From positions 27,104-80,715 of the forward strand of contig CAYJNU010000001.1 in the NCBI GenBank assembly GCA_964371005.1: 53,612 bases of DNA, in the 5' to 3' direction. The stretch comes from an uncultured Verrucomicrobiota bacterium (lineage in GTDB: Bacteria; Verrucomicrobiota; Verrucomicrobiia; Limisphaerales; MWDV01). The notes under the pieces were generated by a model. The model ran no database searches. It saw only the letters and a list, made by a program, of their open reading frames with translations, and had not been told where the DNA came from. The first letter of the stretch is position 1; every line of letters begins with the position of its first letter. Made by a program: the position numbers and the translations under genes. This document shows, piece by piece, positions 13,401 through 44,650 of the stretch.

Positions 13401-16214
13401 TGGGAACACACCGAGAAGTGTCTCGCCAGCCTCGCCCGCCACACCCCCGAACCGCACGAAGTGATCCTCGTGGACAACGGCTCGACAGACAAAACGCCCG
13501 AAGCGTTGCGCGTGATGGCCGTCAAGAATCAGCGCGTCCGCGTAATCTTCAATCGCGAGAATCGCGGTTTTGCCGCCGGTAACAATCAGGCTCTCGCCAT
13601 CGCGCGCGGCGACGTCGTCGTGCTCCTTAACAACGATACGGTTGTCACTCCGGGTTGGCTCGGGCGCATGCTTGACGTGCTCAAGCGGCATCCGGACACG
13701 GGCGTCGTCGGTCCGATGTCCAACCACGTTTCCGGCCCGCAACGCGTCAGCGATGTCAGTTACACGGACTTGGCCGGCCTACCCGCGTTCACCGAAAGCT
13801 GGGCCGCTGCGCATGATGAACAAGCATTTGAAGTCGGACGCGCCGTGGGCTTCTGCCTGCTCGCGCGGCGCGAGGTCATCGAGCGCATCGGCGGGCTCGA
13901 CGAGCGCTTTGGCAGCGGCAATTTCGAGGATGACGACTTTTGCATCCGCGCGCGGCTTGCCGGTTGGCGCATCCGGATCGCGAAAGATTCCTTCGTTCAC
14001 CACACGGGTAGCCAGACGTTCAAGGGCGCGAAGATTGACTATCGCTCAGCGATGCTGCGCAACTGGGAGTTGTTTCGGACGAAGTGGCAGTTACCCGCCG
14101 ATGTGGTGTTGGAGCAGGGTTATCCACTTCCGCAACGCCTGCCCGCCGGTGTGCCCCTCAACGCTCCCCTCTCCGCGCTCGAACTGACTCACACGATTAC
14201 CAGCGACCGCATCTGGTCGCAGCGCTCGCCGGCTGCCGCGCGCACGTTATCGGAGGATGAACTCCCGCCTGCGGCAAAAGTCGGCCGACTGGATGATGCT
14301 CGCGATCTGTTTGGCCGCCGCAATTATGCTGACGCGTGGCGAGCGGCCGTGATTGCTCTGCAAGCGCGCCCGTTCCATCCCGAAGCCTGCCTCCTGCTCG
14401 CGGAAATCGCCCTGGCCGCCGGCGACGCCGCCACGGCGCGGCTTTGCGCTCAGCGCGCCACCGAGTTCGCCCCGCACTGGAAGGCCGGGCGACAGTTCTT
14501 GAAGCAGCCGCTCAGAGGCGATGCGAAGCCCGAATGGCTGGCGCTGCCCGAGCAAATCCGAAATCCGAAATCCGCGACCCGGCATCGGTTGACCGTAGGC
14601 GTGCTCACAAAGAATGAGGAACGCTTCATCGCCCAGTGTCTGAACTCGGTGAAGGGCGTCGCCGACCAGATCATTGTCCTCGACACGGGTTCATCCGATC
14701 GCACGATCGAGATTGCGAAATCGCTCGGTGCGGAGGTTCATTCCACGACTTGGAACGACGACTTCAGCGCGCCGCGCAATCTGATTCTGGAGCACGCCAC
14801 CGGGGATTGGATTCTAATGCTCGACGCCGACGAAGAACTGCCCGCCGACCAGCACGCAGCACTGCGCGCGGACTTGCGCAAGCCCGAGGCCATTGCCTGC
14901 CGCGTGCCGTTGGTGAACCGCGGCCAGGAAGCCGAGGGTCAGAGTTTCATTCCGCGCCTGTTTCGCAACGCGCCCGGCGCGCACTACTACGGTCGCATTC
15001 ACGAGCAGGTGTTTCCCAGCCTGCTGCCGCTGTGCAAGAAGTTCGGACTCGACACGGCGCTTGGCACGGCCCGTCTGCTGCATCACGGCTACACGAAGGA
15101 ACTGGTCCGGGATCGCAACAAGATCGAGCGCAACCTGAATCTGCTTCGTCTTGCGATCGCCGAGCGGCCCGACGAACCCAATCTGATGATGAACCTCGGC
15201 CTCGAACTCGTGCGCTCCGGCGATCTCGATGCCGGCATTGTGCATTACCGCGACGCGTTCCGCCTGATGTCCGCGCAAAAGCCCGCCGAAGTCGTGCCCG
15301 AGTTGCGTGAAGTATTGCTGACGCAGTTCACGTCCCATCTTTACAAGGTGCGGGCGCATGACACCGTGGTGCAGGTACTGACCTCGCCGCTCGCGAAAGT
15401 CGGCAGCGGGTTGACCGCCTCCATGCACTTTGCCCTGGGCCTGTCGAGTTTCGAGTTGAAGGATTACCGGCAGGCGGTCGACAACATGCGCCAGTGTCTG
15501 GCGAAATTGAAGCAACCGGCACTCTCGCCCATCAACACGGATATCCTGACGGCCGCGCCGCATCATTGCCTGGCGTTGGCGCTCGCGAAGCTCAACGATG
15601 TGGCAGGCGCGGAGAAGGCCTTTCAAGCCGGGCTCGCCATGACCTCGCGGACGGAGGACATGCAGGTGGATTACGCTCGTTTCCTGATGGCGCAACAGCG
15701 GCCCGTGGAAGCCCTGCAAAGCCTGAATGAAGTGGTCCAGCGCAACGCCACCCACTCCTCGGCGTGGCGGTTGGGCGGCGAGATTGGCCTGAGCCAGCCG
15801 GAGTATCTGGAATTCGCGCGTGATTGGACTGCCGAAGCAGTGCGACAATTACCGAACGACTTGGCGGTGGTGGCTCAACGCGCCGAGGCGTTGATGCTCA
15901 GTCGGGAGCCCCGCGAGGCGCGCCCGCTTTGGGAACGCGCCTGCAACGGGGCGCGTCCGCCGCGCGCCGTCGCGGCGGCCATCCTATGCGCAACCCTCGA
16001 GGCGCAGCCGGGGCTGTCCCCGCAAAACGCCGCCGAAGAGGTGAATGTGAGCCGCGCGTTTGTGGATTGGTATCGGCGGCTGGTCACCTTCCAGGCGCTG
16101 GAAACCGTGGTTCAACTGAACGGTCGCGTCGGCCTGCTGCGGGAAACGCTGCCGGGCGCCGCCCGCGTGATCGAAACCGTCGTCGCGGCGGCCGATGCCG
16201 CCCAGCCGGGCTGA
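10413..16214 (+). CDS. 1933-aa multidomain glycan-modifying enzyme: class I SAM methyltransferase, GT2, GT4 (GT-B), GT2, TPR, GT2, TPR
   Basis: MT: 'FASLGAGDCLVEID...VIANHSLHHF'. GT2-A: 'VSIVIPVLNKVDFTRKCL...VVVWDNGSTDGT...FLNNDT'. GT4: 'RILVIDPLLP...GAGMKGKIGEALANGLPVVTT'. GT2-B: 'IIVLALNQWEHTEKCL...ILVDNGSTDKT...LLNNDT...FEDDDFC'. GT2-C: 'LTVGVLTKNEERFIAQCL...VLDTGSSDRT...MLDADEEL'. There are TPR-like stretches between and after the domains. Confidence 0.85.
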   Translation: MDTPDYQARLQQQIEQYRHVENMHDLPAIYHYWSNKYLRPNIKEVLEVDSITEFYAEHLRRAAQKHKGPYRFASLGAGDCLVEIDVAKSLRAGGLADFIFECFELSPVLLARAQASAKAEGLEKCIRLVPTDLNKWTPRPQSYTGVIANHSLHHFVDLETIFDNTHTALRTDGVFVTNDMIGRNGHMRWPEVLRMVEPIWATLPNRLKFNQQLKSLDESFVNRDCSLEGFEGIRAQDILPLLVTRFEFSHFLAFGGLIDVFIDRGYGHNFDPADEKDLALIDSIAQQNDAALAQGTLKPTMLLAVMTPGQVAQPKCHQGLTPEFSVRPPSIIELNVTPIPKVSIVIPVLNKVDFTRKCLDALRRHTPAGQYEVVVWDNGSTDGTKTFLEKQCAVDPVVRYFRSEENLGFVGGNNAAVQHARGEFLVFLNNDTEPQPGWLEALLQTAESDSSVGAVGAKLIYPDGKLQEAGGIIFRDASGWNYGRTQDPRDPRFNFPREVDYCSAACLLVRTALFRQLGGFDVRYSPAYYEDTDLCFALRHNGYRVIYQPRCEIIHHEGATAGQDLTKGFKQYQVANRQKFTEKWKEALGRQHVPDANLVRRASHRARGQRILVIDPLLPMYDRASGSRRLFEMLKILAAGGNAVTFIARNGQGGERYATELQALGIEVYAGDAERMKECGFAVKCWPLDLPKLLRESQYETIILSFWYVAEQYLSRLRAWSPKSRVVVDTVDVHFLRERRQAELYQDHELLLRALDTYRRELNVYRQADALITVTEDDRQALLKEIPQSCIFVVPNIHEVAADIPPVDHRNGLLFVGGFGHPPNEDAVLHFHREIWPRIRQRVPDARWTIVGNKPPAAVQALAGPAIEVTGYVPSMEPYLRSHLVSVAPLRYGAGMKGKIGEALANGLPVVTTRIGAEGMGLEDGKGGTLVGDDPEAFADHVARLYTDRGLWTQLSAQGRQHIESHFTPQCIARQLETLLDWSSSFCSIIVLALNQWEHTEKCLASLARHTPEPHEVILVDNGSTDKTPEALRVMAVKNQRVRVIFNRENRGFAAGNNQALAIARGDVVVLLNNDTVVTPGWLGRMLDVLKRHPDTGVVGPMSNHVSGPQRVSDVSYTDLAGLPAFTESWAAAHDEQAFEVGRAVGFCLLARREVIERIGGLDERFGSGNFEDDDFCIRARLAGWRIRIAKDSFVHHTGSQTFKGAKIDYRSAMLRNWELFRTKWQLPADVVLEQGYPLPQRLPAGVPLNAPLSALELTHTITSDRIWSQRSPAAARTLSEDELPPAAKVGRLDDARDLFGRRNYADAWRAAVIALQARPFHPEACLLLAEIALAAGDAATARLCAQRATEFAPHWKAGRQFLKQPLRGDAKPEWLALPEQIRNPKSATRHRLTVGVLTKNEERFIAQCLNSVKGVADQIIVLDTGSSDRTIEIAKSLGAEVHSTTWNDDFSAPRNLILEHATGDWILMLDADEELPADQHAALRADLRKPEAIACRVPLVNRGQEAEGQSFIPRLFRNAPGAHYYGRIHEQVFPSLLPLCKKFGLDTALGTARLLHHGYTKELVRDRNKIERNLNLLRLAIAERPDEPNLMMNLGLELVRSGDLDAGIVHYRDAFRLMSAQKPAEVVPELREVLLTQFTSHLYKVRAHDTVVQVLTSPLAKVGSGLTASMHFALGLSSFELKDYRQAVDNMRQCLAKLKQPALSPINTDILTAAPHHCLALALAKLNDVAGAEKAFQAGLAMTSRTEDMQVDYARFLMAQQRPVEALQSLNEVVQRNATHSSAWRLGGEIGLSQPEYLEFARDWTAEAVRQLPNDLAVVAQRAEALMLSREPREARPLWERACNGARPPRAVAAAILCATLEAQPGLSPQNAAEEVNVSRAFVDWYRRLVTFQALETVVQLNGRVGLLRETLPGAARVIETVVAAADAAQPG

Positions 16215-17417: not shown

Positions 17418-18128
17418 TCAACAGATCGTGACTTCGCGCAAACCAAGCAAGGCGGTGGTGTCGGCGTCATGGTCCGTCCCGCGTGGATGGAAAACGAATT
17501 CGTGTCGTCCGGGCGGCAGGCTGGAAAGGGCGGCTTGGATTTCTTTCGCGTTCATGCGGTACAGACGGTCAAGTCCCCAGAGCGTATCCGATTTCGCGGA
17601 GCGGTTCCACCGGCTGAGCCAGCGGCAGGCAAAGGGGCGAAGCCATCGCTCAGGGCCAGATGGACCAAACCAGCGCACCTCGAAACCGCGCAGCCAACCG
17701 ACAAACGTCCCAGGCAGGACGGACTCCAAGACGCGAAGCACCTGGGGGTGGACATGCAGGTGGTGGTGAGCATTCAGGAAATCACAGCGCAAGCCGGTGG
17801 ATTCAAACAACCGCCATTGTTGGCGAATCTCCCGACGCATGAGCTGTCGAGATTGAGCATGGCAGCCGATGGCCAGGCCGGCCCGAAAGGCGGATCCGCC
17901 CCAGGGCCAGGCCGGGCAGGTCGTCGGCGAAGAGTCGCACAAGTGCAGATGCCAACCGAGCTTTAGCGATGGGCACTCGCGGGCCAACTGAACCGCATGT
18001 TCGGTACCCGCTTGGCCCACCATCAGGCTGGCTCCATGAAGGGCGCCCTCGCGGTGCGCACGGAGAACCGCCAGGTTGATTGTTTCGCTGATGCCAAAAT
18101 CATCGGCAATGAAGACGCCGCCTGTCAT
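17418..18128 (-). CDS. ChbG/YdjC/HpnK-family carbohydrate deacetylase
   Basis: 'GVFIADDFGISETINLAVLRAHREGALHGASLMV' carries the DDFG motif and N-terminal block of the YdjC/ChbG/HpnK family. Its size of 236 aa fits. Confidence 0.75.
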   Translation of the reverse strand: MTGGVFIADDFGISETINLAVLRAHREGALHGASLMVGQAGTEHAVQLARECPSLKLGWHLHLCDSSPTTCPAWPWGGSAFRAGLAIGCHAQSRQLMRREIRQQWRLFESTGLRCDFLNAHHHLHVHPQVLRVLESVLPGTFVGWLRGFEVRWFGPSGPERWLRPFACRWLSRWNRSAKSDTLWGLDRLYRMNAKEIQAALSSLPPGRHEFVFHPRGTDHDADTTALLGLREVTIC

Positions 18129-18325
18129 GTGGCGAGGGTTTTACAGGCTTTGCTTTCCCATGCAAGGCTGATATGAAGCTGTGCGGAAGAACATGAAGGA
18201 CCAAGTCAACACCGCTCAGAAGGGCGGCATGGGTTTCATCGGTCGCGGACTCGTGCGCACCTCGATCACGCAAGGGAAACGCCTGAGTCTCCCATGCTTG
18301 GCCCTCCTTGCGGTTTTGCCTCTCC

Positions 18326-19603
18326 ATGCCGGTCATTGAGTATGCCTTGCTGGCTTGGACCGGTGTCGCCTTGATTTGGTGGCTGATCGCCTACCGGCTC
18401 CTGGGCGAATCACCCGACCCGAGCCCGGCGCCGACCGCGGCGCCACTGCCGACGCTCACGATCTTCAAACCGCTGCCTCCGACCACTGCCGACGCGGATC
18501 GCCTTCTTTTGGCGGCTGCCATCGAATCCTTTATCGCGCAGCTGGACGCGAATTCACAGATGCTTGTCGGCGTTGAACAAACGGAGGCGGACGCCTGGGA
18601 GCCGGTTTTCCAGCGTTGGCGTCGCGGTCCGGCAGCCGCACGGATTCTAATAGTGACCCTGCCGCCGCCACTTCCGGAAGCGAACCCCAAAATAGCCAAG
18701 CTGGAAGCTCTCGCGCCGATGGCGCTGGGGCGATTCTGGCTTTGGTCAGACGCGGACATCATCGCGCCCCCAGGCTTGCTAAGGCAGCTTCAGCGGGAAC
18801 TGGCCGATTCCGGTGCCGGCGGGGTAACGAGTGCCTACGCGGTGAGGTCGCCCGCGCGGGCGGCAGGAATGCTGGACGCGCTTTTTGTGAACCTGGAGTT
18901 CCTTCCCGGCGTGCTGCTGCTCGGCCGGCGCGGTCGGCTGGATTTCGCCTTCGGCGCCGCGACCTTGTTTTGCGCGGCGGATTTCCACGCCCGTGTCTCG
19001 TGGAGCGAGCTGCGCCGGGCCCTAGCCGATGACCACGAGTTGGGGAAGCGTCTGGGCTCCGTACGCCTGAGTGGTAGCGTCGTGGAGACGTTGGCCTTGT
19101 CGGTTGGCTGGCGACAGGCGCTGAACCACTATTATCGCTGGCAGAAGACGATTCGGTGGTGTCGGCCGGGAGGCTACGCGGCGTTACTCGTCATTCTGCC
19201 GTTCCTGGGGTGGCTGGCGGTGGCGTTGGCCCGTCCCTCGGCAGGACTGTCTTGGGCGGGGCTCGGTGGCACGTGGCTGGCAGAATCGGTTTTCGCTGGC
19301 ATCGCGTTTCGCAGGTTGAATTGTGTGCTACCGCGGAAAGGGTGGCTCGCGTTCATCGCTTGGCCCCCTCTGCGGGCGCTGACCTGGCTGGCGGTGTGGA
19401 TGCCCTTGCCGATCCGCTGGGGCGAAGGCCATGCCCTTTGGCGACAGCCACGACGCGCTTTCGCCAAATCGCCATCGGCGGAGGCGTGCGCTCAGACCGT
19501 CAAGGCACCAGCGACTGGCGGCGCTGCCGCAGGCCGCGAAAGAACTCAAAGCCCTCCCGACAGCGACGGACGCACACCGTGCGATCCTCCAGCATGGTCT
19601 TGA
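18326..19603 (+). CDS. Membrane glycosyltransferase, ceramide-glucosyltransferase/HpnI-like (GT-A with an R/QxxRW motif)
   Basis: N-terminal TM helix, 'LTIFKPL', 'WSDADIIAPPG', 'DDHELGKRL' and 'YYRWQKTIRW' ((Q/R)xxRW), plus C-terminal TM helices. ATG 18326 is preferred over TTG 18308. The 3' end overlaps the convergent radical SAM gene by 104 nt. Confidence 0.7.
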   Translation: MPVIEYALLAWTGVALIWWLIAYRLLGESPDPSPAPTAAPLPTLTIFKPLPPTTADADRLLLAAAIESFIAQLDANSQMLVGVEQTEADAWEPVFQRWRRGPAAARILIVTLPPPLPEANPKIAKLEALAPMALGRFWLWSDADIIAPPGLLRQLQRELADSGAGGVTSAYAVRSPARAAGMLDALFVNLEFLPGVLLLGRRGRLDFAFGAATLFCAADFHARVSWSELRRALADDHELGKRLGSVRLSGSVVETLALSVGWRQALNHYYRWQKTIRWCRPGGYAALLVILPFLGWLAVALARPSAGLSWAGLGGTWLAESVFAGIAFRRLNCVLPRKGWLAFIAWPPLRALTWLAVWMPLPIRWGEGHALWRQPRRAFAKSPSAEACAQTVKAPATGGAAAGRERTQSPPDSDGRTPCDPPAWS

Positions 19604-20927
19604 GGATGCGTAGGATCGGTCCGGGGCGAAGGTAGTAACTGCGGTAAAAGCGTTCCACCGCTTCAAAGATTTCCGCCCCACTCAGTTCGGGATACTCCAA
19701 GGCGGATGCCTGGAAGCCGTCTTCGCGCACCGATCCGGTGGCCACCGATTTGGCGAACCAGCCGTTCCGACGCGCCTGCTCATAAAGCTCCGTGCCCGGA
19801 TACGGGGCCGCGAGGGCGACCTGGATGCTAAACAAGTCGAGGTCCTTGGCGAAGTGGATGGTTTCCTCAATGGAATGTCTCGTCTCACCCGGAAGGCCCA
19901 GAATGAAGGCCCCATGAACGCGCACGCCGGTTTGGTGACACGCGCGCGTGAACCGACGCATCGTTTCCAGTGAAACACCCTTCTTGATGTTCTCCAGAAT
20001 CTTCGCGTTGCCGCTCTCGTAGCCAACCAGGAACAGCCGCAGTCCATAATCCTTGAAGAAACGCACGGTGTCTTCGTCCAGATTCGCGCGGCTGTTGCAG
20101 CTCCAGGTCAGGCCCAGCGGCGCAATTCGACGGGCGATTTCCCGAGCGCGGGGCAGGTTGGCCGTGAACGTATCGTCATCGAAAAAAAACTCTTTGACTT
20201 GAGGAAAGAGACGTTTCATGTACGCCATTTCCTCCGCCACGTTCTGCGCTGACCTGACCCGGTAACGCTGCCCTCCGATCGTCTGGGGCCAGAGGCAGAA
20301 CGTACACTGTGCCGGACAGCCCCGCCCGGAGTAGAAACTGACGTACGGATGGAGCAGGTAGCCAATGACGTAATTCTCGATCCGCAGGTTGCGCCGGTAC
20401 ACGTCCGCCACCCACGGCAGCACATCCAAGTCAGTGAGCAATTCCCGTTCAGGATTGTGGTGGATTGCGCCGCGGGCATCGCGGTAGGACAATCCGGTGA
20501 TTTGCCCCCACGGGCGACCTTCGCCCACCTCCTTGCAGGTGAAATCGAATTCTCTCCTTCCCACCCAGTCAATCGCCGGCGACGCCAACAATGTCTGTTC
20601 AGGCAGCACCGCAGCTTGAGCGCCCACAAATCCAATCCTTGTTTCCGGTCGCGCTTGCTTGATTGCCTCTGCCACGCAGCAGTCATTGCGCAGCGAAGGG
20701 GTCGAAGTGTGGATGACCACGTGATCGTGGTGACGCGCCTCGGCTAAACATTCCGCCAAGCCGAAGCGATGCGGCGGGCAATCCATCAATCGAGCGTCCG
20801 GCACCAGCGCTGCCGCTTGCGCCAACCAGGTAGGATACCAGAAACTGGTAACCTCACGCCGGGCTTGGTAGCGCGCTCCGGCGCCCCCGTCAAAACCGTC
20901 GTAACTCGGTGGGCACAAAAACAACAC
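19500..20927 (-). CDS. B12-binding-domain radical SAM protein, HpnJ-like
   Basis: The N-terminus 'LFLCPPSYDGFDGGAGARYQARREVTSFWYPTWLAQAAAL' resembles, as far as I recall it, the HpnJ N-terminus. The radical SAM cluster motif 'GRGCPAQCTFC' (CX3CX2C) is present. GTG start. Confidence 0.8.
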   Translation of the reverse strand: MLFLCPPSYDGFDGGAGARYQARREVTSFWYPTWLAQAAALVPDARLMDCPPHRFGLAECLAEARHHDHVVIHTSTPSLRNDCCVAEAIKQARPETRIGFVGAQAAVLPEQTLLASPAIDWVGRREFDFTCKEVGEGRPWGQITGLSYRDARGAIHHNPERELLTDLDVLPWVADVYRRNLRIENYVIGYLLHPYVSFYSGRGCPAQCTFCLWPQTIGGQRYRVRSAQNVAEEMAYMKRLFPQVKEFFFDDDTFTANLPRAREIARRIAPLGLTWSCNSRANLDEDTVRFFKDYGLRLFLVGYESGNAKILENIKKGVSLETMRRFTRACHQTGVRVHGAFILGLPGETRHSIEETIHFAKDLDLFSIQVALAAPYPGTELYEQARRNGWFAKSVATGSVREDGFQASALEYPELSGAEIFEAVERFYRSYYLRPGPILRILKTMLEDRTVCVRRCREGFEFFRGLRQRRQSLVP

Positions 20928-21233
20928 GCTGCCAAGCTAGCAGAGGCCGATGCCAACGCCAGATTTTGCGATGGGGGAGGGGCGTGGCCTCGACTCCCTT
21001 TCTGTTTTCACTCTGTTTGGGGTGGCCGACATCACGGAGCGCCAATTCCGCGTGCTATCCTCGGAGGTGCAGGGAGGGAATACAGTCCGCGTGTAACCTT
21101 TATGCAGCGGCTACTAACACTTCGCCGCGCCGTCTCCACAGAAAAAAGACGACAATGAAGTTGATATTGCCTGTTCTGGCCTCCACACTTCGAGGCGCTC
21201 CATCCGTGATGCTGATTTGGATGGTTCGCAGTT

Positions 21234-21557
21234 ATGCCATCGGAAGACGGTCATTTCGCACCACTACAGCTTGAACAAGCCATCCGGCGCCGTGCGCAGG
21301 TGATCAATGCCTTCAAAGAGGAGTTGATCCGGCGGCTAAACCTCCCTTTTGTCCCGGAAGACCTCCACGAAGATGTGTCACTGCTCGGTTCGGGGCTGGG
21401 GCTCGACTCGCTCGATGCGCTTGAGATCGTGCTTTGCATCGAACACTGCTTCCGCATCAAGATTCCCGACGAAAACATCGCCGTGCTGCGTTCAATCAAC
21501 ACCGTGGTGGATTTCATCATCGCCCAACAGGATGCCCAGGGAGGGAAGCCGGCATGA
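21234..21557 (+). CDS. Acyl carrier protein (phosphopantetheine attachment site)
   Basis: 'LLGSGLGLDSLDALEIVLCIEHCF' contains the DSL serine motif. It is 107 aa. Confidence 0.85.
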   Translation: MPSEDGHFAPLQLEQAIRRRAQVINAFKEELIRRLNLPFVPEDLHEDVSLLGSGLGLDSLDALEIVLCIEHCFRIKIPDENIAVLRSINTVVDFIIAQQDAQGGKPA

Positions 21558-22663
21558 GGATCTCGTTGCTTAAAGAGAAGCTGGCCGCCGCCGGGGCGTC
21601 ATTCCGCGAACGAGCCGGAACGGAAGTCGTTTCGCACTTCGCCGAACCGCCCACCGAGTATCGCGCGGTGCGCGATGCCGTGGCCCTGACGGATTTCTCC
21701 TTCGTCCGGTCTTTCCGCCTGCCCGAAGACAAGGGGCTGGATTTCCTGGACGCCCTCCTGGCCGGCAACGTGCCCAAGATCCGCTTTGGCCGGGCGCTGC
21801 ACACGATGATGCTTAACAGTGAGGGGCTGCTGGCAGGCGATTGTCTCGTAGCCAATAACGACCAGGAATTCGTCTTTCTGTGTGAGAGCATCGTGCCTGA
21901 CGTCGAAATAGATGCGCTGATGCAAGCGGCGGGCGTCGCGGACGCGGGACACGAAGAACTCACATCCAGCCATGTTTTGCTCAGCTTGGACGGCTACAGG
22001 GCATGGGAAGTCGTGAAGCGGCAATTTGGGCCGGATGTGCTCGGGCTGCCGTATCTGTCCATCGAGAACTACACTTTCGATGGTTCGCCGGTGCGGCTGT
22101 TCCGCGCGGGCAAGACCTCCGAGTTCGGCTACCTGATCCTGGCGCCCCAGAGCGTGGCCGTCGCATTGTTCGACACACTCAAGACCGAGGTGGAGCAATG
22201 TGAAGGACGCTTGTGTGGCGTGGACATTCACGACGAGTTACGGTTGGAAGGGCGTTTTTTCAACATTCACCAAGAAGGCCTGCGCGTGCGCGATCCGCTG
22301 CCGCTCGGCCTTCAGTGGATGGTGGATTTGGAGAAGGACAATTTCACGGGTGTTGCAGCGCTGAAGCAACGCCGGGCGGCGGGTCTCAAACAGAAGATCG
22401 TCGGCGTCGCGGCGGAGACTGATTGCCAATCGCTCAAGGCCGGGGCCCAAGTTTTCCATGAGGGCAAACCGGTGGCGGAAGTAGTAGCACACTGCTTCTC
22501 ACATGTCCTCAACCGCCCGCTCGGACTGGCGCTGTTCCCGATCGAGTTGGCCTATTCTGGACTCTCATTTCAACTCGGTGCGGCCGGCGGGCCGGCGATC
22601 ACGACCATCTCGATGCCGCCGATCATGCCCAAGAGTTTGGGTGTCAAACTCGACGAGATGTAA
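21554..22663 (+). CDS. GcvT/aminomethyltransferase-family folate-binding protein
   Basis: ATGA overlap with the ACP stop. 'EYRAVRDAVALTDFSFVRSFRLPEDKGLDFLDALLAGNVPKIRFGRALHTMMLNSEGLLAGDCLV' follows the T-protein N-terminal pattern, and the size (369 aa) fits. The internal ATG of ORF 21434..22663 was chosen. Confidence 0.7.
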   Translation: MRISLLKEKLAAAGASFRERAGTEVVSHFAEPPTEYRAVRDAVALTDFSFVRSFRLPEDKGLDFLDALLAGNVPKIRFGRALHTMMLNSEGLLAGDCLVANNDQEFVFLCESIVPDVEIDALMQAAGVADAGHEELTSSHVLLSLDGYRAWEVVKRQFGPDVLGLPYLSIENYTFDGSPVRLFRAGKTSEFGYLILAPQSVAVALFDTLKTEVEQCEGRLCGVDIHDELRLEGRFFNIHQEGLRVRDPLPLGLQWMVDLEKDNFTGVAALKQRRAAGLKQKIVGVAAETDCQSLKAGAQVFHEGKPVAEVVAHCFSHVLNRPLGLALFPIELAYSGLSFQLGAAGGPAITTISMPPIMPKSLGVKLDEM

Positions 22664-22669
22664 GCTGCC

Positions 22670-23116
22670 GTGGTGACCGCCCGCCATGCCGCTCCAGGCC
22701 GGCTGATCAAACGCCGAATCCCGATCACGCCGGCGTTTCATGAGACCGACATGATGGGCGTGGTGCACAACTCGGTCTATTTCCTGTGGTTCGAACAAGG
22801 ACGGCTCCAAATCATGCTGGAGGTATTGCCAATTGAGGAAGCCCTTGCGCTCGGCGTCGCCATGCCGGTGGTTGAAAACGTCTGTCATTATCGCAAGCCG
22901 GTGAAGTTCGGTGCGCCGCTCCTCCTCTACACCACGCATCACATCCAGCCCGCCTACGAAGGTCGGCTCGTCTTCCACCACTACCTGATTCACGAGAAGC
23001 ACCGCACGGCGATGGCCTGGGGGCAAACCGCCACCACGCTGGTGGAGGCAAACACCAACCGTCTGGTGAAAGACTGGCCCACCGACCTCTGGCAGCGCTA
23101 TCAGGCGCTGGCTTGA
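22670..23116 (+). CDS. Hotdog-fold acyl-CoA/acyl-ACP thioesterase (YbgC/4HBT family)
   Basis: 'FHETDMMGVVHNSVYFLWFEQGRLQIM' is the catalytic Asp block of 4HBT-type thioesterases. GTG start. Confidence 0.8.
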   Translation: MVTARHAAPGRLIKRRIPITPAFHETDMMGVVHNSVYFLWFEQGRLQIMLEVLPIEEALALGVAMPVVENVCHYRKPVKFGAPLLLYTTHHIQPAYEGRLVFHHYLIHEKHRTAMAWGQTATTLVEANTNRLVKDWPTDLWQRYQALA

Positions 23117-23150
23117 TACCGCGGCCTGAAACCGGGACAATCCCGCATTC

Positions 23151-23894
23151 ATGGAACGCGAATTTGAGAATCAGGTCGTGCTCGTCACCGGCGGCTCGCG
23201 AGGCATAGGCCGGGCCGTCGTCGAGCGGTTTGCCGCCCGCGGCGCAAAAGTCTTCTTCACCTACCACCAACAGGAGGAGCAGGCTCGCGAGGTGGCGGCG
23301 GCTTGTGGCGCCGTGGCCATGCAGTGTTCGCAGACAGACCCCGCCGCCATCGAAGCCGCCGTGCGACGCGTATCGACCGAGGGCGGGAAGATTGACGTGC
23401 TCGTCAACAACGCCGGCGTCACGGCGGACATGTTCCTGATGCTCATGCCGGCAGACGATTGGAACAAGGTGCTGGACACGAACCTGAACGGAGCGTTCCG
23501 CTGGTGCAAGAACGTCATCCGCCCAATGCTCCTGGCGCGCAAAGGCTCGATCATCAACGTCGCCTCCATCTCCGGCCTCGTCGGCGTCATGGGCCAGACC
23601 AACTACGCCGCGTCCAAAGGCGCGTTGCTGGCTTTCTCCCGTTCGCTGGCTGCTGAGGTCGGCCCCAAGGGCATCCGCGTGAACGCCGTCGTGCCCGGTT
23701 TCATTGAGACCGACATGACCGCGCGCGTGCCCCGTCAGATCAAGCAGCGCAATCTGGAGCACATTCTTCTGAAACGCTTCGGACAACCCGCAGAGGTTGC
23801 GTCCGTCGTCACGTTTCTCGCCTCGGAAGCGGCCTCTTACATCATGGGGCAAATGATCGTGGTGGACGGTGGCTTGACCGCTACCGCCGCGTGA
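23151..23894 (+). CDS. fabG: 3-oxoacyl-ACP reductase (SDR)
   Basis: '[11 protein letters not shown]' (TGxxxGxG), 'NNAGV' and 'YAASKGA' (YxxxK). It is 247 aa. Confidence 0.9.
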
Positions 23895-23904
23895 CCGTGC
23901 TCCG

Positions 23905-24891
23905 ATGAATGTCTTTCTATTCCCGGGCCAGGGTTCGCAAGAAATCGGGATGGCCGCCGACTTGTTCAAAGCGGATCCCTGCTTCCGTGACCTCGTTGCC
24001 TTCGCCGCCGGGAAGTCGGGAGCCGATTTGGAACGCATTTGCCTGCGCGGCCCCGAGCGGGAATTGATCCGGACCCGGAATCTGCAACCCTTGCTGGTCT
24101 GCGTTTCGCTGGGCTACCTGCGCCACTTGACCGAACGCGGAGTCCGGTCGGATTGTGTCCTCGGCCATTCGCTGGGTGAAGTGACGGCGCTGGCGGCAGC
24201 GGGCGTCATTTCCGCGGAAGCCGCCGTTGCGCTGGCAGCGGAACGCGGTCGCTTGATGGACGGAGCAGCGGCCCAAGTAGCGGGGGGCATGGTCGCCGTG
24301 ACCACACCGAATCGGGAACGGCTGGTGCAGTGGCTCGCCACAATGCCGCCCGAGCGTCTGGTTCTGGCGAATGACAATGCACCCACGCAACTCGTGCTCT
24401 CCGGCACCGTGGCTGCCTTGGAAGAAGTGGGGCGGTTCGTGGCGGCGGAGCGATTGGGGGCCTGCCGCAAATTGCCCGTGGCGGGTCCGTGGCACAGCCC
24501 GTTGATGGCAGAGGCGCAGCGCGCGTTCACCGGATGGCTGCAAGCGATTCCCTTTCGCGCGCCCGCCACCCCCGTCGTGTTCAACATCACGGGCAACCAG
24601 GAAGACGACCCCGCACGCATCCGCTCGCTTGCCGCCCGCAATCTCGCCGAGCCCGTTCGCTGGCGGACCAGCATGGAAACCGTGCGAACGATGCGACCAA
24701 CCACCCTGTTTGAGATCGGACCCGGCCGTGTGCTCGCGGGGTTGGCGCGAGCCAATGGCTTCGACGATGCCACCCGGATCGTTCACGTCAACAACCTGCG
24801 CGGCGTCGAGTTGGCGGTGGCGGCGAAGAATCCAGTGGACGTTGGCGGTCCAAATCGTTCATCGTCTTCGTCGTCAACCCCACCGGTTTAG
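23905..24891 (+). CDS. fabD: Malonyl-CoA:ACP transacylase
   Basis: 'FLFPGQGSQ' and 'GHSLGEVTALAAAG' form the acyltransferase GHSxG motif. Confidence 0.9.
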   Translation: MNVFLFPGQGSQEIGMAADLFKADPCFRDLVAFAAGKSGADLERICLRGPERELIRTRNLQPLLVCVSLGYLRHLTERGVRSDCVLGHSLGEVTALAAAGVISAEAAVALAAERGRLMDGAAAQVAGGMVAVTTPNRERLVQWLATMPPERLVLANDNAPTQLVLSGTVAALEEVGRFVAAERLGACRKLPVAGPWHSPLMAEAQRAFTGWLQAIPFRAPATPVVFNITGNQEDDPARIRSLAARNLAEPVRWRTSMETVRTMRPTTLFEIGPGRVLAGLARANGFDDATRIVHVNNLRGVELAVAAKNPVDVGGPNRSSSSSSTPPV

Positions 24892-24898
24892 ACGGGCG

Positions 24899-26737
24899 AT
24901 GCGGGTTGCCATCACAAACGACACAACGACACAGATGGATTCAGCCGCCGTTTCGGAAGTCAACCGGGCCAACATCCCGCCAGCAGAACAACGCCTGAGC
25001 GCTCGCTCGTCGCCCGTCGCCATGCAATTGCCAGGACGCAACGGCCACCGGCTTACCGTCCGGCTGGCCACAGAGCGGGACCGCGAGACCATCTACCGGG
25101 TACGCCATGAGGTTTATGCCCGGGAGCTGGGCCAGCATCACCCCAACGACGCGGGCCGCCTGACGGATGCACTCGACACGTTCAACGCCTACATTGTGAT
25201 TTCCGAAGGGGATACGGTGGCGGGCTTCGTTTCCATCACGCCGCCGGGCAGCCCGAGTTTCTCCATCGACAAGTATCTCCGCCGCGATCAACTCCCGTTC
25301 CCGTTCGACGACCGCCTCTTCGAAGTACGCCTGCTCACCGTCCCGGAGACGAAGCGCCGCCGACTGCTCGCGCTGGCGCTGATGTATGCCTCGTTCCGCT
25401 GGGTCGAAGCCCACGGCGGCACCAGGATTGTGGCCATCGGCCGCCGCGAGGTTTTCAGCATGTACGAGCGCGTGGGGCTCAAGCCCATTGGCCTCACCGT
25501 GCAATCCGGTGCTGTCACCTACGACGTGATGCAAACCACGATGCCGGAGGTTCACGCCGCGTTGCCCGGCATTCGTGGCATGCTTGACCGCATCCAGGCC
25601 GAAATGGCTTGGGACATCGGCGTTGCTTACGACACCCCGGCAGCCTGTTATCACGGCGGCGCCTTCTTCGACGCCGTAGGCGACGAATTCGGCTCGCTGG
25701 AGAAACTCGACACCATCATCAACGCCGACGTGCTGGATGCCTGGTTTCCGCCGTCGCCACGTGCGGTAGCAGCGCTTCAGGAGAATCTCCCACAGCTCCT
25801 GCGCACCTCGCCCCCGACCGGATGCGAAGGGCTGGTGCGCGCCATCGCGCGCACGCGCGGGGTGACACCCGATTCTATCCTGCCGGGCGCGGGTTCGTCC
25901 GACCTCATCTTTCTCGCCTTGCGCTACTGGCTGACACCGCAATCCCGCGTGCTGATTCTGGACCCCACGTATGGCGAGTACGCGCACGTCCTGGAAAAGG
26001 TCATCCGCTGTCGTGTCGAACGTTTGCGACTGCACCGCAACGAACATTTTCGGCTGGATCCGCGCCGCTTGGAGGCCCAGTTCGCGCACGACTACGATCT
26101 GGTTGTGCTGGTAAACCCAAACAGCCCCGCCGGCCAGCACGTTCCGCGTGCCGACCTGGAGCGGGTGTTGCGCGCCGCCCCGTCCCACACGCGGGTCTGG
26201 GTGGACGAAACCTACGTGGACTACGCCGGGCCGGGTGAAACGTTGGAGGCATTCGCCGCGGCCTCGGAGAACGTGATCGTGTGCAAGTCCATGTCGAAAA
26301 CCTACGCGTTGAGCGGCGCGCGGGTGGCGTATTTGTGCGCGGGGCCGCACCAACTGGAATCCCTGCGCCCGCTGACGCCGCCATGGGCGGTCAGCCTGCC
26401 CGCGCAGGTGGCGGCGGTGAAGGCCCTGGAGGACGTGGACTACTACGCGGCGCGCCATGCCGAAACGCACGGGTTGCGTGAGGATCTCGCCAAAGGGTTA
26501 CAGGCGCTCGGCTGGGACGTGCTGCCCAGCATGGCCAATTATCTCCTCTGCCATTTGCCGGCGGAGGGGCCGGACGCGGCGACGGTTGTCGCGCGCGGTC
26601 GGGAACGCGGTTTGTTCCTGCGGGACGCGGCGACGATGGGCTCGCAACTGGGCGACCGCGCGATCCGCGTCGCCGTGAAAAATGCCGCGACGAACGAGCG
26701 GATGCTTCAAATTCTGGGCGGTGTCTTGCGCGCCTGA
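24899..26737 (+). CDS. Fusion protein: GNAT-like N-acyltransferase domain plus class I/II PLP aminotransferase (HisC/CobD-like) domain
   Basis: N-terminal half: 'RETIYRVRHEVYARELGQ...YIVISEGDTVAGFVSITPP...RRRLLALALMYASFRWVEAHGGTRIVAIGRREVFSMYERVGLKP' (acyl-amino-acid-synthase/GNAT-like). C-terminal half: 'ADVLDAWFPPSP...ILPGAGSSDLI...VNPNSPAG...CKSMSKTYALSGARVAYL' (PLP lysine block). The ATG at 24899 inside ORF 24629..26737 was chosen. Confidence 0.7.
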   Translation: MRVAITNDTTTQMDSAAVSEVNRANIPPAEQRLSARSSPVAMQLPGRNGHRLTVRLATERDRETIYRVRHEVYARELGQHHPNDAGRLTDALDTFNAYIVISEGDTVAGFVSITPPGSPSFSIDKYLRRDQLPFPFDDRLFEVRLLTVPETKRRRLLALALMYASFRWVEAHGGTRIVAIGRREVFSMYERVGLKPIGLTVQSGAVTYDVMQTTMPEVHAALPGIRGMLDRIQAEMAWDIGVAYDTPAACYHGGAFFDAVGDEFGSLEKLDTIINADVLDAWFPPSPRAVAALQENLPQLLRTSPPTGCEGLVRAIARTRGVTPDSILPGAGSSDLIFLALRYWLTPQSRVLILDPTYGEYAHVLEKVIRCRVERLRLHRNEHFRLDPRRLEAQFAHDYDLVVLVNPNSPAGQHVPRADLERVLRAAPSHTRVWVDETYVDYAGPGETLEAFAAASENVIVCKSMSKTYALSGARVAYLCAGPHQLESLRPLTPPWAVSLPAQVAAVKALEDVDYYAARHAETHGLREDLAKGLQALGWDVLPSMANYLLCHLPAEGPDAATVVARGRERGLFLRDAATMGSQLGDRAIRVAVKNAATNERMLQILGGVLRA

Positions 26738-26744
26738 ATGCACT

Positions 26745-27833
26745 TCAGGTGGCGGGCGGTGGAAAAAACCGTTCCAGTCGCGCAAACAAGGATCTGTCTC
26801 CCTCCAACTCAATCTGACGTTGGGTCAACGCCTGACGCGCATCGGTCTGCCGGGTGAAGAGGCCCGCCCACACCGCTGCGGTACAACGAACGCGCAGATC
26901 CGGGTCCGTTGCGGCCCCTTCCACCAACTCGCATCGTCCGCGGTCAATTCGGACCTGATACACGAGGTCCGGCTCGCGGAACTCGAACTGCAGGACCGCC
27001 CGCACCCGGGCCGCCGCCTTCGCGTCGAAAAAGCGCACCATCTCGCGCATGAGGATGCGCACGTCCGCGGAGACCTGCTTCTGCACTTCGGCAGGGTCCA
27101 AGCCCGTTTCGCGCAACGCCTCGGCGCGTCTCCAGTAGATGTTTGAGTAGGTGCGGAAATGCTCGGGTGACGCCGCCAGCGGCAGTGCCACCGCCTCGGT
27201 GGTTTCCGCCGTCAATCTCCCGGTCGTGCCGGCCTCGCGCCCCGCCTGAACAAACGCCGTCTCGATCCGCTTCAGCGTCTTCGGTTTCGAGAGCGGATAA
27301 TCCAGCAGATACGATTCCGGCCGTGTCAGTTGGCCGCCGAGTTCCAGATCCAAGCTGTCGGCAATGAGTTGGAAGGTGGCATTCAGTGGCTCGTACGGCT
27401 CCGGGCCGGGCAATGCGCCGGTTACGATGGTGATCAACTTCTTGTGGCGCCAGCGGCGCGGGAAACGCACGCTGTTGCGCGTCAGGCCGCGCGCGGAACG
27501 GACGACGCCGGGCGCAAACAACGGGAACGTGCGCTCAAACCAAGTCTTCAGCAACGCGCTCATCGAGTAGAAGTAGAGTGGCGTCACGCACACGATCACG
27601 TCGGCGTCGAGCACCTGTTCGAGCTGCGCGCCCATGTCATCGCCGTGGACGCATTGACCGGGCGTGACCAGCCAGCAGTGAAAACAACCGAGACAGGGCT
27701 GAACGGAAAGCGCCGAGAGGTCCGTGCCGGTCACCTTTGCCCCGACCTCGTGCAGGCCCTGGAGAAAGAGATCCGCGACGCGCTGCGTGTAGCCATGCTT
27801 GCGCGGATTGCCTCGCACCAGCAGCACCTTCAT
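26745..27833 (-). CDS. Fusion protein: iron-sulfur flavoprotein-like FMN reductase domain plus SCP2 sterol/lipid-carrier domain
   Basis: 'MKVLLVRGNPRKHGYT' is a flavodoxin-like NADPH-FMN-reductase start. The compact Cys motif 'CLGCFHCWLVTPGQC' (CX2CX2CX7C) is present. The C-terminus 'LQFEFREPDLVYQVRIDRGRCELVEGAATDPDLRVRCTAAVWAGLFTRQTDARQALTQRQIELEGDRSLFARL' is SCP2-like. Confidence 0.7.
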   Translation of the reverse strand: MKVLLVRGNPRKHGYTQRVADLFLQGLHEVGAKVTGTDLSALSVQPCLGCFHCWLVTPGQCVHGDDMGAQLEQVLDADVIVCVTPLYFYSMSALLKTWFERTFPLFAPGVVRSARGLTRNSVRFPRRWRHKKLITIVTGALPGPEPYEPLNATFQLIADSLDLELGGQLTRPESYLLDYPLSKPKTLKRIETAFVQAGREAGTTGRLTAETTEAVALPLAASPEHFRTYSNIYWRRAEALRETGLDPAEVQKQVSADVRILMREMVRFFDAKAAARVRAVLQFEFREPDLVYQVRIDRGRCELVEGAATDPDLRVRCTAAVWAGLFTRQTDARQALTQRQIELEGDRSLFARLERFFPPPAT

Positions 27834-28297
27834 GCGCCGCCCTCGATTTGTGCCAGCGTCAAGACGCCGCTGGCAATCACGTTCCGCCCCACCGTGGCCT
27901 CCACGTTGAACCGAAACAATCCGCCGAAGCTCTTGTCGCTCGCCGATCGCAGCACCAGCACGTCGCCAGGCCTGGCCGGGTGGGTGAACTTCACATTGGT
28001 CGTGGCCAGGAAGAACATCTTCGGCCGCTCTGGCGGCGTGGCAGCAGCCAGCTTGTCGCTCAACCCAAGCAGCAGCCCGCTGGTTTGGGCGAGTGCCTCC
28101 GCCACCAATACGCCCGGCATGATGGGGCGGCCGGGAAAGTGCCCGGCGAACTGCGGCTCGTCGGAACGCAGCTCGCGTTCGGCGACGATGGATTTGTAGG
28201 CCTCCAGCCTGACCACGCGATCTACGAACAGGAACGGCGCCCGGTGCGGGAGCAGCGACAGCAGCTCGTCTCGGTTGAAAAGCGGTTGCTCAGTCAT
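27830..28297 (-). CDS. fabZ: 3-hydroxyacyl-ACP dehydratase
   Basis: 'LLPHRAPFLFVDRV' and 'FAGHFPGRPIMPGVLVAEALAQ' are canonical FabZ motifs. ATGA overlap with the downstream gene. Confidence 0.85.
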   Translation of the reverse strand: MTEQPLFNRDELLSLLPHRAPFLFVDRVVRLEAYKSIVAERELRSDEPQFAGHFPGRPIMPGVLVAEALAQTSGLLLGLSDKLAAATPPERPKMFFLATTNVKFTHPARPGDVLVLRSASDKSFGGLFRFNVEATVGRNVIASGVLTLAQIEGGA

Positions 28298-29108
28298 GAT
28301 TCTCAGGGGTGCGGTTTTCCCAGCAGGTCCCGACGTCCAACGCGTTCAACGCGCGCGCCATCCGCCGATGCACCCGGTCGCACAATGTGTTCGCGTCATC
28401 GTCGGGAGCCGGCGGCTCGGGGTCAAGGAAGTGGATGCGATAATCATTGCGACCGCGGGGAAACACGCTCCCCGGCAACTTCGCCATGAACGGCTGTGTG
28501 GAGTGGACGATGACCGGCACGACCGGAACTCGGGCCGCCTGCGCCAGTTGAAAGGCCAACGCATTGAACCGCTGCAGGCGTCCGTTGCGCGCCCGCGTGC
28601 CTTCGGGAAACACGAGCAGGCTGCGGCCCTCGGCAAGCACGCGCCGGCACTTCTCCAGCGAAGCGCCGACGGAACGGAGCGAATGCCGGTCCAGGCTGAC
28701 GAGATCAAAATACTTCGCCAACAAGGCGTACATGGGCTGCCGTGTGTCCCGCGACTTGATCACCACGCCCAGATGCGGCACCAAGCCAAGCAACAAAATG
28801 GCGTCCATGAAGCCGCGATGATTGGCCACCACCACGGCCGGGCGCGCCGCCAGCACCCGATCCAGTCCGGCGATTCCCGCAACGCGATAGACGCCGATGA
28901 CCGGCAACCAGCCGCGGGTGAACAGAGCCAGATAACGGTGAATCAGCGCGTGGATCGTGCGATGACGCGCCCGCGGAAACGGCAATAACACCAGGAGCAC
29001 GGGCACCAGACACAGGACGAACACGCCTTTCGAGACGACGTAGCTCAGATAGCCCAGCGAGCAGCACAGCACCGTCAATGGCAAGCAGCGTTCGCCGGAC
29101 GACTTCAT
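28290..29108 (-). CDS. PlsC-type lysophospholipid/glycerol-phosphate acyltransferase
   Basis: 'VVANHRGFMD' (HX4D) and 'LLVFPEGTRARNG' (FPEGTR), with N-terminal TM helices. Confidence 0.8.
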   Translation of the reverse strand: MKSSGERCLPLTVLCCSLGYLSYVVSKGVFVLCLVPVLLVLLPFPRARHRTIHALIHRYLALFTRGWLPVIGVYRVAGIAGLDRVLAARPAVVVANHRGFMDAILLLGLVPHLGVVIKSRDTRQPMYALLAKYFDLVSLDRHSLRSVGASLEKCRRVLAEGRSLLVFPEGTRARNGRLQRFNALAFQLAQAARVPVVPVIVHSTQPFMAKLPGSVFPRGRNDYRIHFLDPEPPAPDDDANTLCDRVHRRMARALNALDVGTCWENRTPENHD

Positions 29109-35519: not shown

Positions 35520-35773
35520 GACTTGCGGTTGGCGGCGACGAACTCCGCCAAGGCGGTGACCGACGCGAACGCCTTGTCGGCGACCTGCCGCTCCTGGATG
35601 ATGATGCCGTAGTCCTGATCCAGTAGCGCCACCAACTCCAGCGCGTCAATCGAGTCCAGCCCCAAGCCGGTACCGAACAGTGGTTCGTCGGCCTTGATGT
35701 CGGCGGGCTTCACGCTGTCGAGGTTCAACGCGGAGATGATCTTGGCTTTGAGTTCTTCAATCAGGCTTTCCAT
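35516..35773 (-). CDS. Acyl carrier protein
   Basis: 'LFGTGLGLDSIDALELVALLDQDYG' contains the DSI/DSL serine motif. It is 85 aa, with an ATGA overlap with the downstream KS-CLF. Confidence 0.9.
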   Translation of the reverse strand: MESLIEELKAKIISALNLDSVKPADIKADEPLFGTGLGLDSIDALELVALLDQDYGIIIQERQVADKAFASVTALAEFVAANRKS

Positions 35774-44644: not shown

Positions 44645-44650
44645 GTTCAC

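Follow-up and report, generated by a model that had tools for sequence, protein, structure and literature searches.

What does a protein that is predicted to fold like the T-protein of glycine cleavage do beside an acyl carrier protein (ACP) in a synthase-type gene cluster? The question is raised by a stretch of 53,612 nt from an uncultured Verrucomicrobiota bacterium (assembly GCA_964371005.1, contig CAYJNU010000001.1, positions 27,104 to 80,715 of the forward strand), which we refer to as the window. It holds a large type II fatty-acid/polyketide-like cluster around an operon in which the gene of a dedicated ACP overlaps a gene for a 369-aa GcvT-like protein (21554–22663, plus strand), hereafter the T-like protein. 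On balance, we favor the explanation that the T-like protein serves a type II synthase built on a ketosynthase (KS) and a chain length factor (CLF) as a subunit of T-protein fold dedicated to the ACP, and that it takes up the phosphopantetheine arm of the ACP where GcvT takes up the lipoyl arm.

The ACP/T-like gene pair in the window and in other genomes

The plus strand across the junction of the two genes reads GGAGGGAAGCCGGCATGAGG. The stop codon TGA of the ACP gene occupies 21555–21557, and the ATG of the T-like gene begins at 21554. As the initial annotation had read from the letters, the two genes thus share the ATGA at 21554–21557. A Shine-Dalgarno-like GGAGGG box (21540–21545) precedes it with an 8-nt spacer, and the whole coupling junction extends over 21540–21557 of the plus strand. 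The ACP itself (ACP2, 21234–21557, plus strand) is 107 aa long as called, and its orthologs upstream of the T-like gene in related loci have 94–98 aa. It matches PF00550 (E-value 1.3e–7), carries the phosphopantetheine-attachment residue Ser59 in a GLDSLD motif, and scores under every NCBIfam AcpP cut-off.

We looked for relatives of the T-like protein with a motif-seeded scan of about 185,600 species representatives, one genome per species, and found that 204 species carry one. Eighty loci, all from uncultured organisms (metagenome-assembled genomes and one single-cell genome), were kept for the analysis of gene context. They span Verrucomicrobiota, Fibrobacterota/Chitinivibrionales, Omnitrophota, Kiritimatiellia, Victivallales/Lentisphaerae, Planctomycetales, Rokubacteria, and Myxococcota. 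Open reading frames in all loci were labeled using the window proteins as probes, and neighbors were counted in those 40 loci whose flanks are 6 kb or longer on each side. An ACP gene lies directly upstream of the T-like gene in all 40, which come from at least eight phyla, and the ACP stop and T-like start overlap by a 4-nt NTGA in 54 of 71 junctions; at the remaining junctions the two genes are within a few nucleotides of each other. Since the ACP is upstream in every locus and the overlap recurs so widely, the pairing of the two genes is not due to chance. The translational coupling proposed in the initial annotation is confirmed by these junctions together with the overlap in the window, and the ACP-GcvT adjacency, for which a co-occurrence analysis had been suggested, is kept across phyla.

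The rest of the neighborhood is that of a synthase. FabG is found in 38 of the 40 loci, FabD in 33, KS in 32, a thioesterase (after the T-like gene) in 30, a B12-radical SAM enzyme in 29, a dehydratase in 23, a lysophospholipid-type acyltransferase (LPLAT) in 21, and a fusion of an FMN-reductase with an SCP2 domain (FMN-reductase::SCP2; double colons mark fused domains) in 20. A GNAT::aminotransferase fusion is present in 14, only within a verrucomicrobial subgroup. In almost all of the 29 loci the B12-radical SAM part makes up the N-terminus of a tri-domain protein (B12-radical-SAM::KS::CLF, about 1250 aa) that is encoded directly before the ACP (for example, L001 3508–7263, L089 3619–7383, and L090 5845–9609). 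Hence, the description of the pair as the head of an operon holds in this genome, where ACP2 is the first gene and its upstream neighbor is a divergent hpnJ-type hopanoid gene, but not in most relatives, where the tri-domain gene precedes the pair on the same strand. A compact version, from Omnitrophota (L090), has a flavodoxin gene followed by seven genes for B12-radical-SAM::KS::CLF, ACP, T-like protein, thioesterase, ketoreductase (KR), malonyl-CoA:ACP transacylase (MAT), and dehydratase (DH). Dehydratase orthologs in the related loci match the ApeI/ApeP-like families PF22817 and PF22818.

Close homologs of the T-like protein (63–90% identity) are plentiful in metagenomes; the named ones belong to Verrucomicrobiota, and their source annotation is "glycine cleavage system aminomethyltransferase T". 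Of 401 genomes sampled from the phylum of the window, only 3 carry the gene. Rarity within this phylum together with presence in many phyla would fit an accessory cluster that probably moves horizontally. In a myxobacterial-type locus (L088, 7014–11535), genes for a MiaB-like radical SAM protein and an unknown 410-aa protein are followed only by ACP, T-like, and thioesterase genes, and no KS gene lies within 10 kb. The ACP/T-like/thioesterase triad may therefore be the minimal unit.

The partnership is also seen within single polypeptides. Seven longer relatives from the search of representatives are ACP::GCV_T::GCV_T_C fusions, and they are scattered over at least five separate subclades of the tree described below. 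Because fusion has arisen repeatedly and independently, these proteins are strong evidence that the ACP and the T-like protein work together physically. The earlier idea that the protein acts with a carrier protein is thus borne out by both the conserved pairing and the fusions.

We also searched plasmids by tblastn. The matches were mostly canonical or oxidase-fused T-domains, and the ACP-coupled kind was found only among matches from E. coli O157 and Rahnella. The E. coli locus (L094, 4359–24688; NZ_CP124742.1, 147.5–172.6 kb) is an island locus of the OI-47 type from O157:H7 strain EDL933. The pair sits there within an operon that a two-partner secretion pair heads, and the genes are ordered as the secretion pair, acpS, a short-chain dehydrogenase/reductase, FabZ, ACP (11612–11893), an "aminomethyltransferase family protein" (the T-like relative, 11929–13089), two KS genes and, further on, a LolA-like gene and FabD, with an ABC exporter also present. 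The T-like relative is 28% identical to the window protein (E-value 1e–31). As in the window, the order is ACP to T-like gene beside KS::CLF, KR, DH, and MAT, and at the folate-contact positions discussed below the signature is of the Lys type (L-D-K-M-Q). However, the two genes are separated by a 35-nt gap rather than overlapping, and the island is tied to the secretion pair and exporter. No radical SAM gene was found in this 25-kb stretch. A published account of OI-47 gives no function for the T-like gene of the island. The record NZ_CP124742.1 is labeled a plasmid and carries genes of the chromosomal-island type.

Fold, phylogeny, and folate contacts of the T-like protein

The T-like protein matches both Pfam families of T-proteins above their gathering cut-offs, as the initial annotation had expected: PF01571 GCV_T at residues 7–256 (E-value 1.1e–34, 120.3 bits versus a cut-off of 25.6) and PF08669 GCV_T_C (E-value 4.3e–7, 30.2 bits versus 25.9). 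AlphaFold2 (AF2) predicts the three-domain cloverleaf fold of T-proteins with high scores (predicted local distance difference test, pLDDT, 95.6; predicted template modeling score, pTM, 0.92; alignment of 39 sequences). The best Foldseek match of the model is the T-protein of Thermotoga maritima (1wos/1woo; TM-score 0.87 over 358–362 columns). It is followed by B. subtilis GcvT, DMGDH, and the P. horikoshii and human T-proteins (0.84–0.88; DMGDH and P. horikoshii 0.85–0.88, human AMT 0.86), and at some distance by LigM (∼0.68), YgfZ (0.62), and Iba57 (0.57). The protein thus resembles the glycine cleavage T-protein (GcvT/AMT, EC 2.1.2.10; PDB 1WOO/1WOS, 1VLO, 3A8I, 1WSV) in its three-domain fold (TM-scores 0.81–0.88), its GCV_T and GCV_T_C matches, its retained Asp, and the small carrier with a thiol-ended swinging arm alongside. 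It differs in that it is only 20–23% identical, in that its partner is an ACP and not the H-protein, and in its setting within a KS/KR/DH/MAT cluster.

Human GcvT contacts tetrahydrofolate (THF) through the invariant residues Met56, Asp101, Tyr197, and Glu204 and the GcvT-specific Arg233 (PMC9551070). We aligned the T-like protein with GcvT of E. coli and with the canonical GcvT encoded elsewhere in its own genome, both of which have M, D, Y, E, and R at these positions. The T-like protein has Val51, Asp96, Lys187, Leu194, and His226, respectively, so that Asp alone is kept. Lys187, at the position of the pterin-stacking Tyr, is invariant in 39 close family members within a motif R-A-G-K-T-S/G-E-F-G-Y, which reads RAGKTSEFGYL in the window protein and includes both K187 and L194. 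At position 194, where the pterin-anchoring Glu would be expected, the family varies among L, Q, W, K, and M. Polar residues that are invariant in the family are E35, R40, D47, S49, R77, E111, R184, K187, E190, Y193, N237, E241, Q254, D258, and R274.

The T-like protein falls far under the cut-offs of all NCBIfam models for folate enzymes of the superfamily, among them those of GcvT (NF001567, 127 versus 300; TIGR00528, 99.8 versus 235.85; NF010093, 80.9 versus 459) and of the models for demethylases and oxidases (DmdA, 38.7 versus 410; trimethylamine N-oxide (TMAO) demethylase, 72.7 versus 1100; SoxA, 70.4 versus 1164). No folate-interconversion genes (folD, metF, or purU-type) were found in eight annotated contexts. 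Use of THF, which the initial annotation had inferred from family membership, is therefore not borne out: four of five contacts are lost, the folate models score far too low, and folate-interconversion neighbors are missing. The residue alignment, proposed at the time as a check, largely speaks against a canonical folate site. A housekeeping role was considered as well and ruled out, since the genome has a separate canonical GcvT on contig C427 (295 bits against PF01571, versus 121 bits for the T-like protein) and an H-protein gene (GCV_H) on contig C111; the T-like locus has no genomic link to gcvH or gcvP. For the branch to which the T-like protein belongs, the label "glycine cleavage system aminomethyltransferase T" is almost certainly an error.

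The branch is defined by a FastTree phylogeny of 130 representatives, the rows of which are best hits to the query and hence a biased sample. A branch with local support of 100% has the canonical rows (M-D-Y-E-R) to one side. The T-like protein falls within a clade of 90 rows (support 99%), of which 83 carry K or R at the Tyr197 position. It belongs to what we call the ACP-coupled Lys clade by its motif (R-x-G-K-[TH]-[GS]-E-[FY]-x-Y), by its place in the non-canonical clade, and by the ACP immediately upstream. In the sister group, with the signature V-D-K-D-L, we examined three long contigs (L091–L093). Their gene order is an unknown protein, KS::CLF, ACP, T-like protein, and a FabA/ApeI-like DH, and two of these contigs have KR and MAT as well. 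Here too the ACP gene overlaps the T-like gene, and no radical SAM gene was found in the annotated stretches. The T-like protein is a member of a large uncharacterized branch of the T-protein superfamily that has probably exchanged its partner. The unknown protein that opens the sister-clade loci (L091 995–2110, L092 5435–6616, L093 5284–6435) has 370–390 aa, a twin-arginine-like N-terminus, and no Pfam match; its three copies are weakly homologous, and it is absent from the window.

Proposed role in a type II synthase and competing explanations

In glycine cleavage, the T-protein draws the lipoyl arm from the H-protein into its own tunnel (PMC7733448; PMC9551070). By analogy with this T-H complex, we propose that phosphopantetheine enters the tunnel of the T-like protein. 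The arm of the dedicated ACP would then replace the lipoyl-lysine of the H-protein, with the ACP docking at the position where the H-protein docks. The thiol-bound intermediate would pass through the tunnel into the former folate cavity. This cavity appears to have been rebuilt, with Tyr exchanged for the invariant Lys, the pterin-anchoring Glu lost, and Asp kept. The carrier-bound chain may be held there or chemically processed, Asp96 and Lys187 being the candidate catalytic pair. Candidate reactions are a group transfer from the thiol to an acceptor, an Asp/Lys-catalyzed step on a beta-keto or enoyl intermediate, and gating of the chain. No one-carbon transfer to THF by the T-like protein would be expected. 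In such a dissociated type II synthase the T-like protein would be a core subunit alongside KS::CLF, ACP, KR, MAT, and a FabZ/ApeI-like DH, and a B12-radical-SAM domain, a thioesterase, FMN-reductase::SCP2, and an LPLAT would be frequent additional parts.

Overall, the T-like protein is probably an unrecognized part of lipid or polyketide synthases and not a one-carbon enzyme. We found no description of a T-protein-like partner of an ACP in the literature, and the earlier remark that no characterized pathway has an ACP-GcvT pairing stands. The ACP as partner is new here and the chemistry probably so, while the fold and the logic of the carrier arm are already known. Tentatively, we would go further and suggest that ACP-coupled T-fold proteins might form a new class of carrier-protein-dependent enzymes. 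They would reuse the two-entrance tunnel, with the carrier arm entering at one end and the former folate cavity at the opposite end, for a step on phosphopantetheine-bound chains unlike that of any known fatty acid synthase or polyketide synthase (PKS) component, such as a thiol-to-acceptor group transfer in the old folate pocket or an Asp/Lys-catalyzed rearrangement. They would be an essential core subunit of widespread, often radical-SAM-fused KS::CLF synthases that make a lipid in Verrucomicrobiota, Fibrobacterota, Omnitrophota, Myxococcota, and E. coli O157:H7.

Several observations weigh against the proposed synthase subunit that takes up the ACP arm. We modeled one of the natural ACP::T-like fusions by AF2, and the prediction gave no clear picture of docking: pTM is 0.78, the ACP part has moderate confidence (pLDDT 55–86), and the linker is disordered. 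Moreover, the T-like model is closer to true folate enzymes than to the folate-independent YgfZ and Iba57; the catalytic Asp is kept and the residue at the Met56 position is hydrophobic; and in the sister clade the Glu204 position is often Asp and sometimes Glu (KD in 23, KE in 5). Because the sister clade is often acidic at this position, a modified folate or pterin site is possible. Due to the nearness of its shape to real folate enzymes, a THF-dependent function stays alive as an alternative.

According to this alternative, the protein would be a one-carbon transferase with a non-canonical folate site, and its substrate would be an ACP-tethered intermediate or the head group, modified for instance by methylene transfer to a beta-ketoacyl-ACP carbanion or by LigM-like demethylation of an aryl methyl ether. 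The protein shares the complete three-domain fold with its nearest structural matches, which are genuine folate enzymes, and D or E is found at the catalytic Asp position in nearly all Lys-clade members. A hydrophobic side chain at the Met56 position, the acidic residues at the Glu204 position in part of the sister clade, and surroundings rich in methyl chemistry (B12-radical SAM in 29 of 40 loci) would fit as well. THF-dependent demethylases (DmdA, 3TFH; LigM, 5TL4/5X1I; DMGDH/DMGO; the sarcosine oxidase alpha subunit) belong to the same superfamily (Foldseek E-values 1e–19 to 1e–33). However, they are folate enzymes acting on free small molecules, and none is coupled to an ACP. The exchange of Tyr197 for an invariant Lys, of Glu204 for Leu, Gln, Trp, Lys, or Met, and of Arg233 for His or a variable residue argues against a folate site, as do the scores far under the GcvT, DmdA, SoxA, and TMAO-demethylase cut-offs and the lack of folD, metF, or purU-type genes in the eight annotated contexts. 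Even the Asp is lost in some ACP-fused relatives (P0224 and P0246). We therefore regard folate-dependent transfer as unlikely, though it fares best among the alternatives.

It is improbable, in our view, that the T-like protein is a non-catalytic chaperone of the ACP or a chain-length gauge that shields or measures a reactive polyene or poly-beta-keto chain. Such a role would be in keeping with the one-to-one coupling and the fusions with ACP, and T-proteins do pull a protected arm out of their carrier protein (PMC7733448). Reactive unsaturated intermediates are also plausible, as no enoyl reductase is recognizable in the cluster by domain annotation of the window and the related context. However, so many polar positions are invariant in the family that an active site seems likelier than a passive cavity.

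Last, the T-like protein could be a folate-independent helper that supports iron-sulfur clusters in the radical SAM enzymes encoded nearby, in the way that YgfZ supports MiaB, and radical SAM enzymes do stand beside the T-like gene in 29 of 40 loci, with several in the window. YgfZ and Iba57 (COG0354) set a precedent in that they have a T-protein-derived fold and keep the Asp without using folate, the other folate contacts being lost, but they need a conserved Cys (PMC9551070), whereas the T-like family has no invariant or near-invariant Cys, possesses a full-length C-terminal barrel, is paired with an ACP instead of ISC partners, matches YgfZ and Iba57 far less well than GcvT (TM-scores 0.62 and 0.57 versus 0.87), keeps its ACP in the sister-clade and E. 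coli O157 stretches without a radical SAM gene, and is fused to ACP and not to radical SAM domains, all of which makes this role very unlikely.

If a T-protein-fold, ACP-dedicated synthase subunit is indeed what the gene encodes, a well-known fold of one-carbon enzymes has been put to use beside ACPs, and type II fatty-acid and polyketide synthases would gain a new kind of subunit. The gene would also offer a way into a widespread cassette and its product. Members of the family occur in abundant uncultured Verrucomicrobiota of soil and peat, and a relative lies in a genomic island of E. coli O157:H7. The natural ACP fusions and the compact Omnitrophota version, with its seven genes (L090), make the role directly testable.

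The surrounding cluster and related biosynthetic systems

The operon continues on the plus strand with the genes listed by the initial annotation, and their assignment was upheld by Pfam. A hotdog thioesterase of the 4HBT/YbgC type (22670–23116; PF13279, E-value 2.5e–11) is followed by a FabG-type 3-oxoacyl-ACP reductase (23151–23894), which scores above the cut-off of NF009466 (248.4 versus 222 bits) and under the equivalog cut-off of TIGR01830 (285 versus 297.75 bits). Next are a FabD-type malonyl-CoA:ACP transacylase (23905–24891; TIGR00128, 218 bits) and a 612-aa fusion of a FeeM-like GNAT with a HisC/CobD-like pyridoxal phosphate enzyme of the class I/II aminotransferases (24899–26737; PF21926 and PF00155). 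The start of this last gene is the ATG at 24899, the TTG at 24629 giving an over-long frame, and its TIGR01140 and TIGR01141 scores are under the cut-offs. From ACP2 to the GNAT::aminotransferase gene the spacings are –4, 6, 34, 10, and 7 nt. A scan of 20600–27000 for promoters and terminators gave counts no higher than expected from shuffled sequence.

Tail-to-tail with this operon, a series of minus-strand genes was assigned by Pfam. It begins with a fusion of an FMN-reductase/flavodoxin-like domain with SCP2 (26745–27833), which could supply electrons to the radical SAM enzymes or act as an unusual enoyl reductase; in 20 of the 40 related loci, the same fusion adjoins the dehydratase and LPLAT genes. 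In the window these are a FabZ/ApeI-P-like dehydratase (27830–28297; NCBIfam FabZ, 123.7 bits, over the cut-off of 113) and an LPLAT (28290–29108). Genes for an AAT-family acyltransferase with tetratricopeptide repeats (TPR), an unknown 241-aa protein, a LolA-like protein, and a polysaccharide-deacetylase-like protein follow (29105–33159), and this block adjoins the ACP/T-like operon also in L003, L012, L014, L016, and L086. Two didomain ketosynthases of the KS::CLF type (32991–35519 and 35801–37873; FabF- and AmcF-like by NCBIfam) enclose the gene of a second ACP, ACP1 (35525–35773; 83 aa; NF006617, 76 bits, over the cut-off of 70), which shares 77% identity with the ACP in the equivalent position of L003. 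Further along the minus strand are an aromatic amino-acid ammonia-lyase of the HAL/TAL family (39368–40936; PF00221, E-value 2e–159) and an AMP-forming ligase (41078–42385; PF00501). The lyase stays below the NCBIfam cut-offs of both HAL (497 versus 524 bits) and TAL (FlxA, 382 bits). Within 8 kb of the T-like gene, lyase and ligase genes occur in 0 and 1 of the 40 loci, respectively; it is possible that they belong to the cluster as starter-unit genes.

A plus-strand block at 43616–48652, also assigned by Pfam and with matches to class-B radical SAM families of NCBIfam, encodes a radical SAM enzyme (43616–44644), two B12-binding radical SAM enzymes (44651–46060 and 45997–47442), and a stand-alone KS (47411–48652). 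The B12-radical SAM and KS genes at 45997–48652, about 25 kb away from the pair, are ∼33% identical to parts of the fused B12-radical-SAM::KS::CLF protein (tblastn against L001). We considered whether 45997–49674 is a frameshifted copy of the tri-domain gene. As identity to the L001 fusion is only ∼33% and the third open reading frame shows no match to CLF, the genes were treated as separate.

Most gene types of the aryl-polyene set are present in the window; in other phyla, neither the lyase nor the ligase is part of the conserved core. The type II PKS of aryl polyenes and flexirubins and other highly reducing type II PKS-like systems (ishigamide, cispentacin Amc) have, like this cluster, a KS with a CLF-like partner, dedicated ACPs, a KR, and an ApeI/ApeP-like dehydratase, and the hotdog thioesterase, LPLAT, LolA-like protein, ammonia-lyase, and AMP-ligase of aryl-polyene-type clusters also recur in the window. 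In contrast to them, the window has fused KS/CLF proteins, B12-radical-SAM enzymes, its own FabD, and FMN-reductase::SCP2. We know of no T-protein-like gene in the ape clusters described for E. coli, Vibrio, and Xenorhabdus. As a possible home of the T-like gene, the ladderane "Cluster I" of anammox bacteria was set aside, since neither a T-protein nor a folate gene is mentioned in a 2026 preprint about this cluster.

Directly upstream of the operon lies a hopanoid side-chain gene group, outside the cluster, made up of a YdjC/HpnK-like gene (17418–18128, minus strand), a GT21/HpnI-like gene (18308–19603, plus strand), and an HpnJ radical SAM gene (19500–20927, minus strand; TIGR03471, 711 bits versus a cut-off of 577.6). 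The gene at 19500–20927 had been a candidate B12-radical SAM member of the cluster; its NCBIfam match to HpnJ places it with the hopanoid hpnI/J/K group. Farther upstream, a 1933-aa multi-domain protein (10413–16214) combines a methyltransferase, a glycosyltransferase domain of family GT4, three of family GT2, and TPR repeats. It is preceded by genes for a CMP-sugar cytidylyltransferase (8007–8693) and a capsule-synthesis-like protein (8690–10381).

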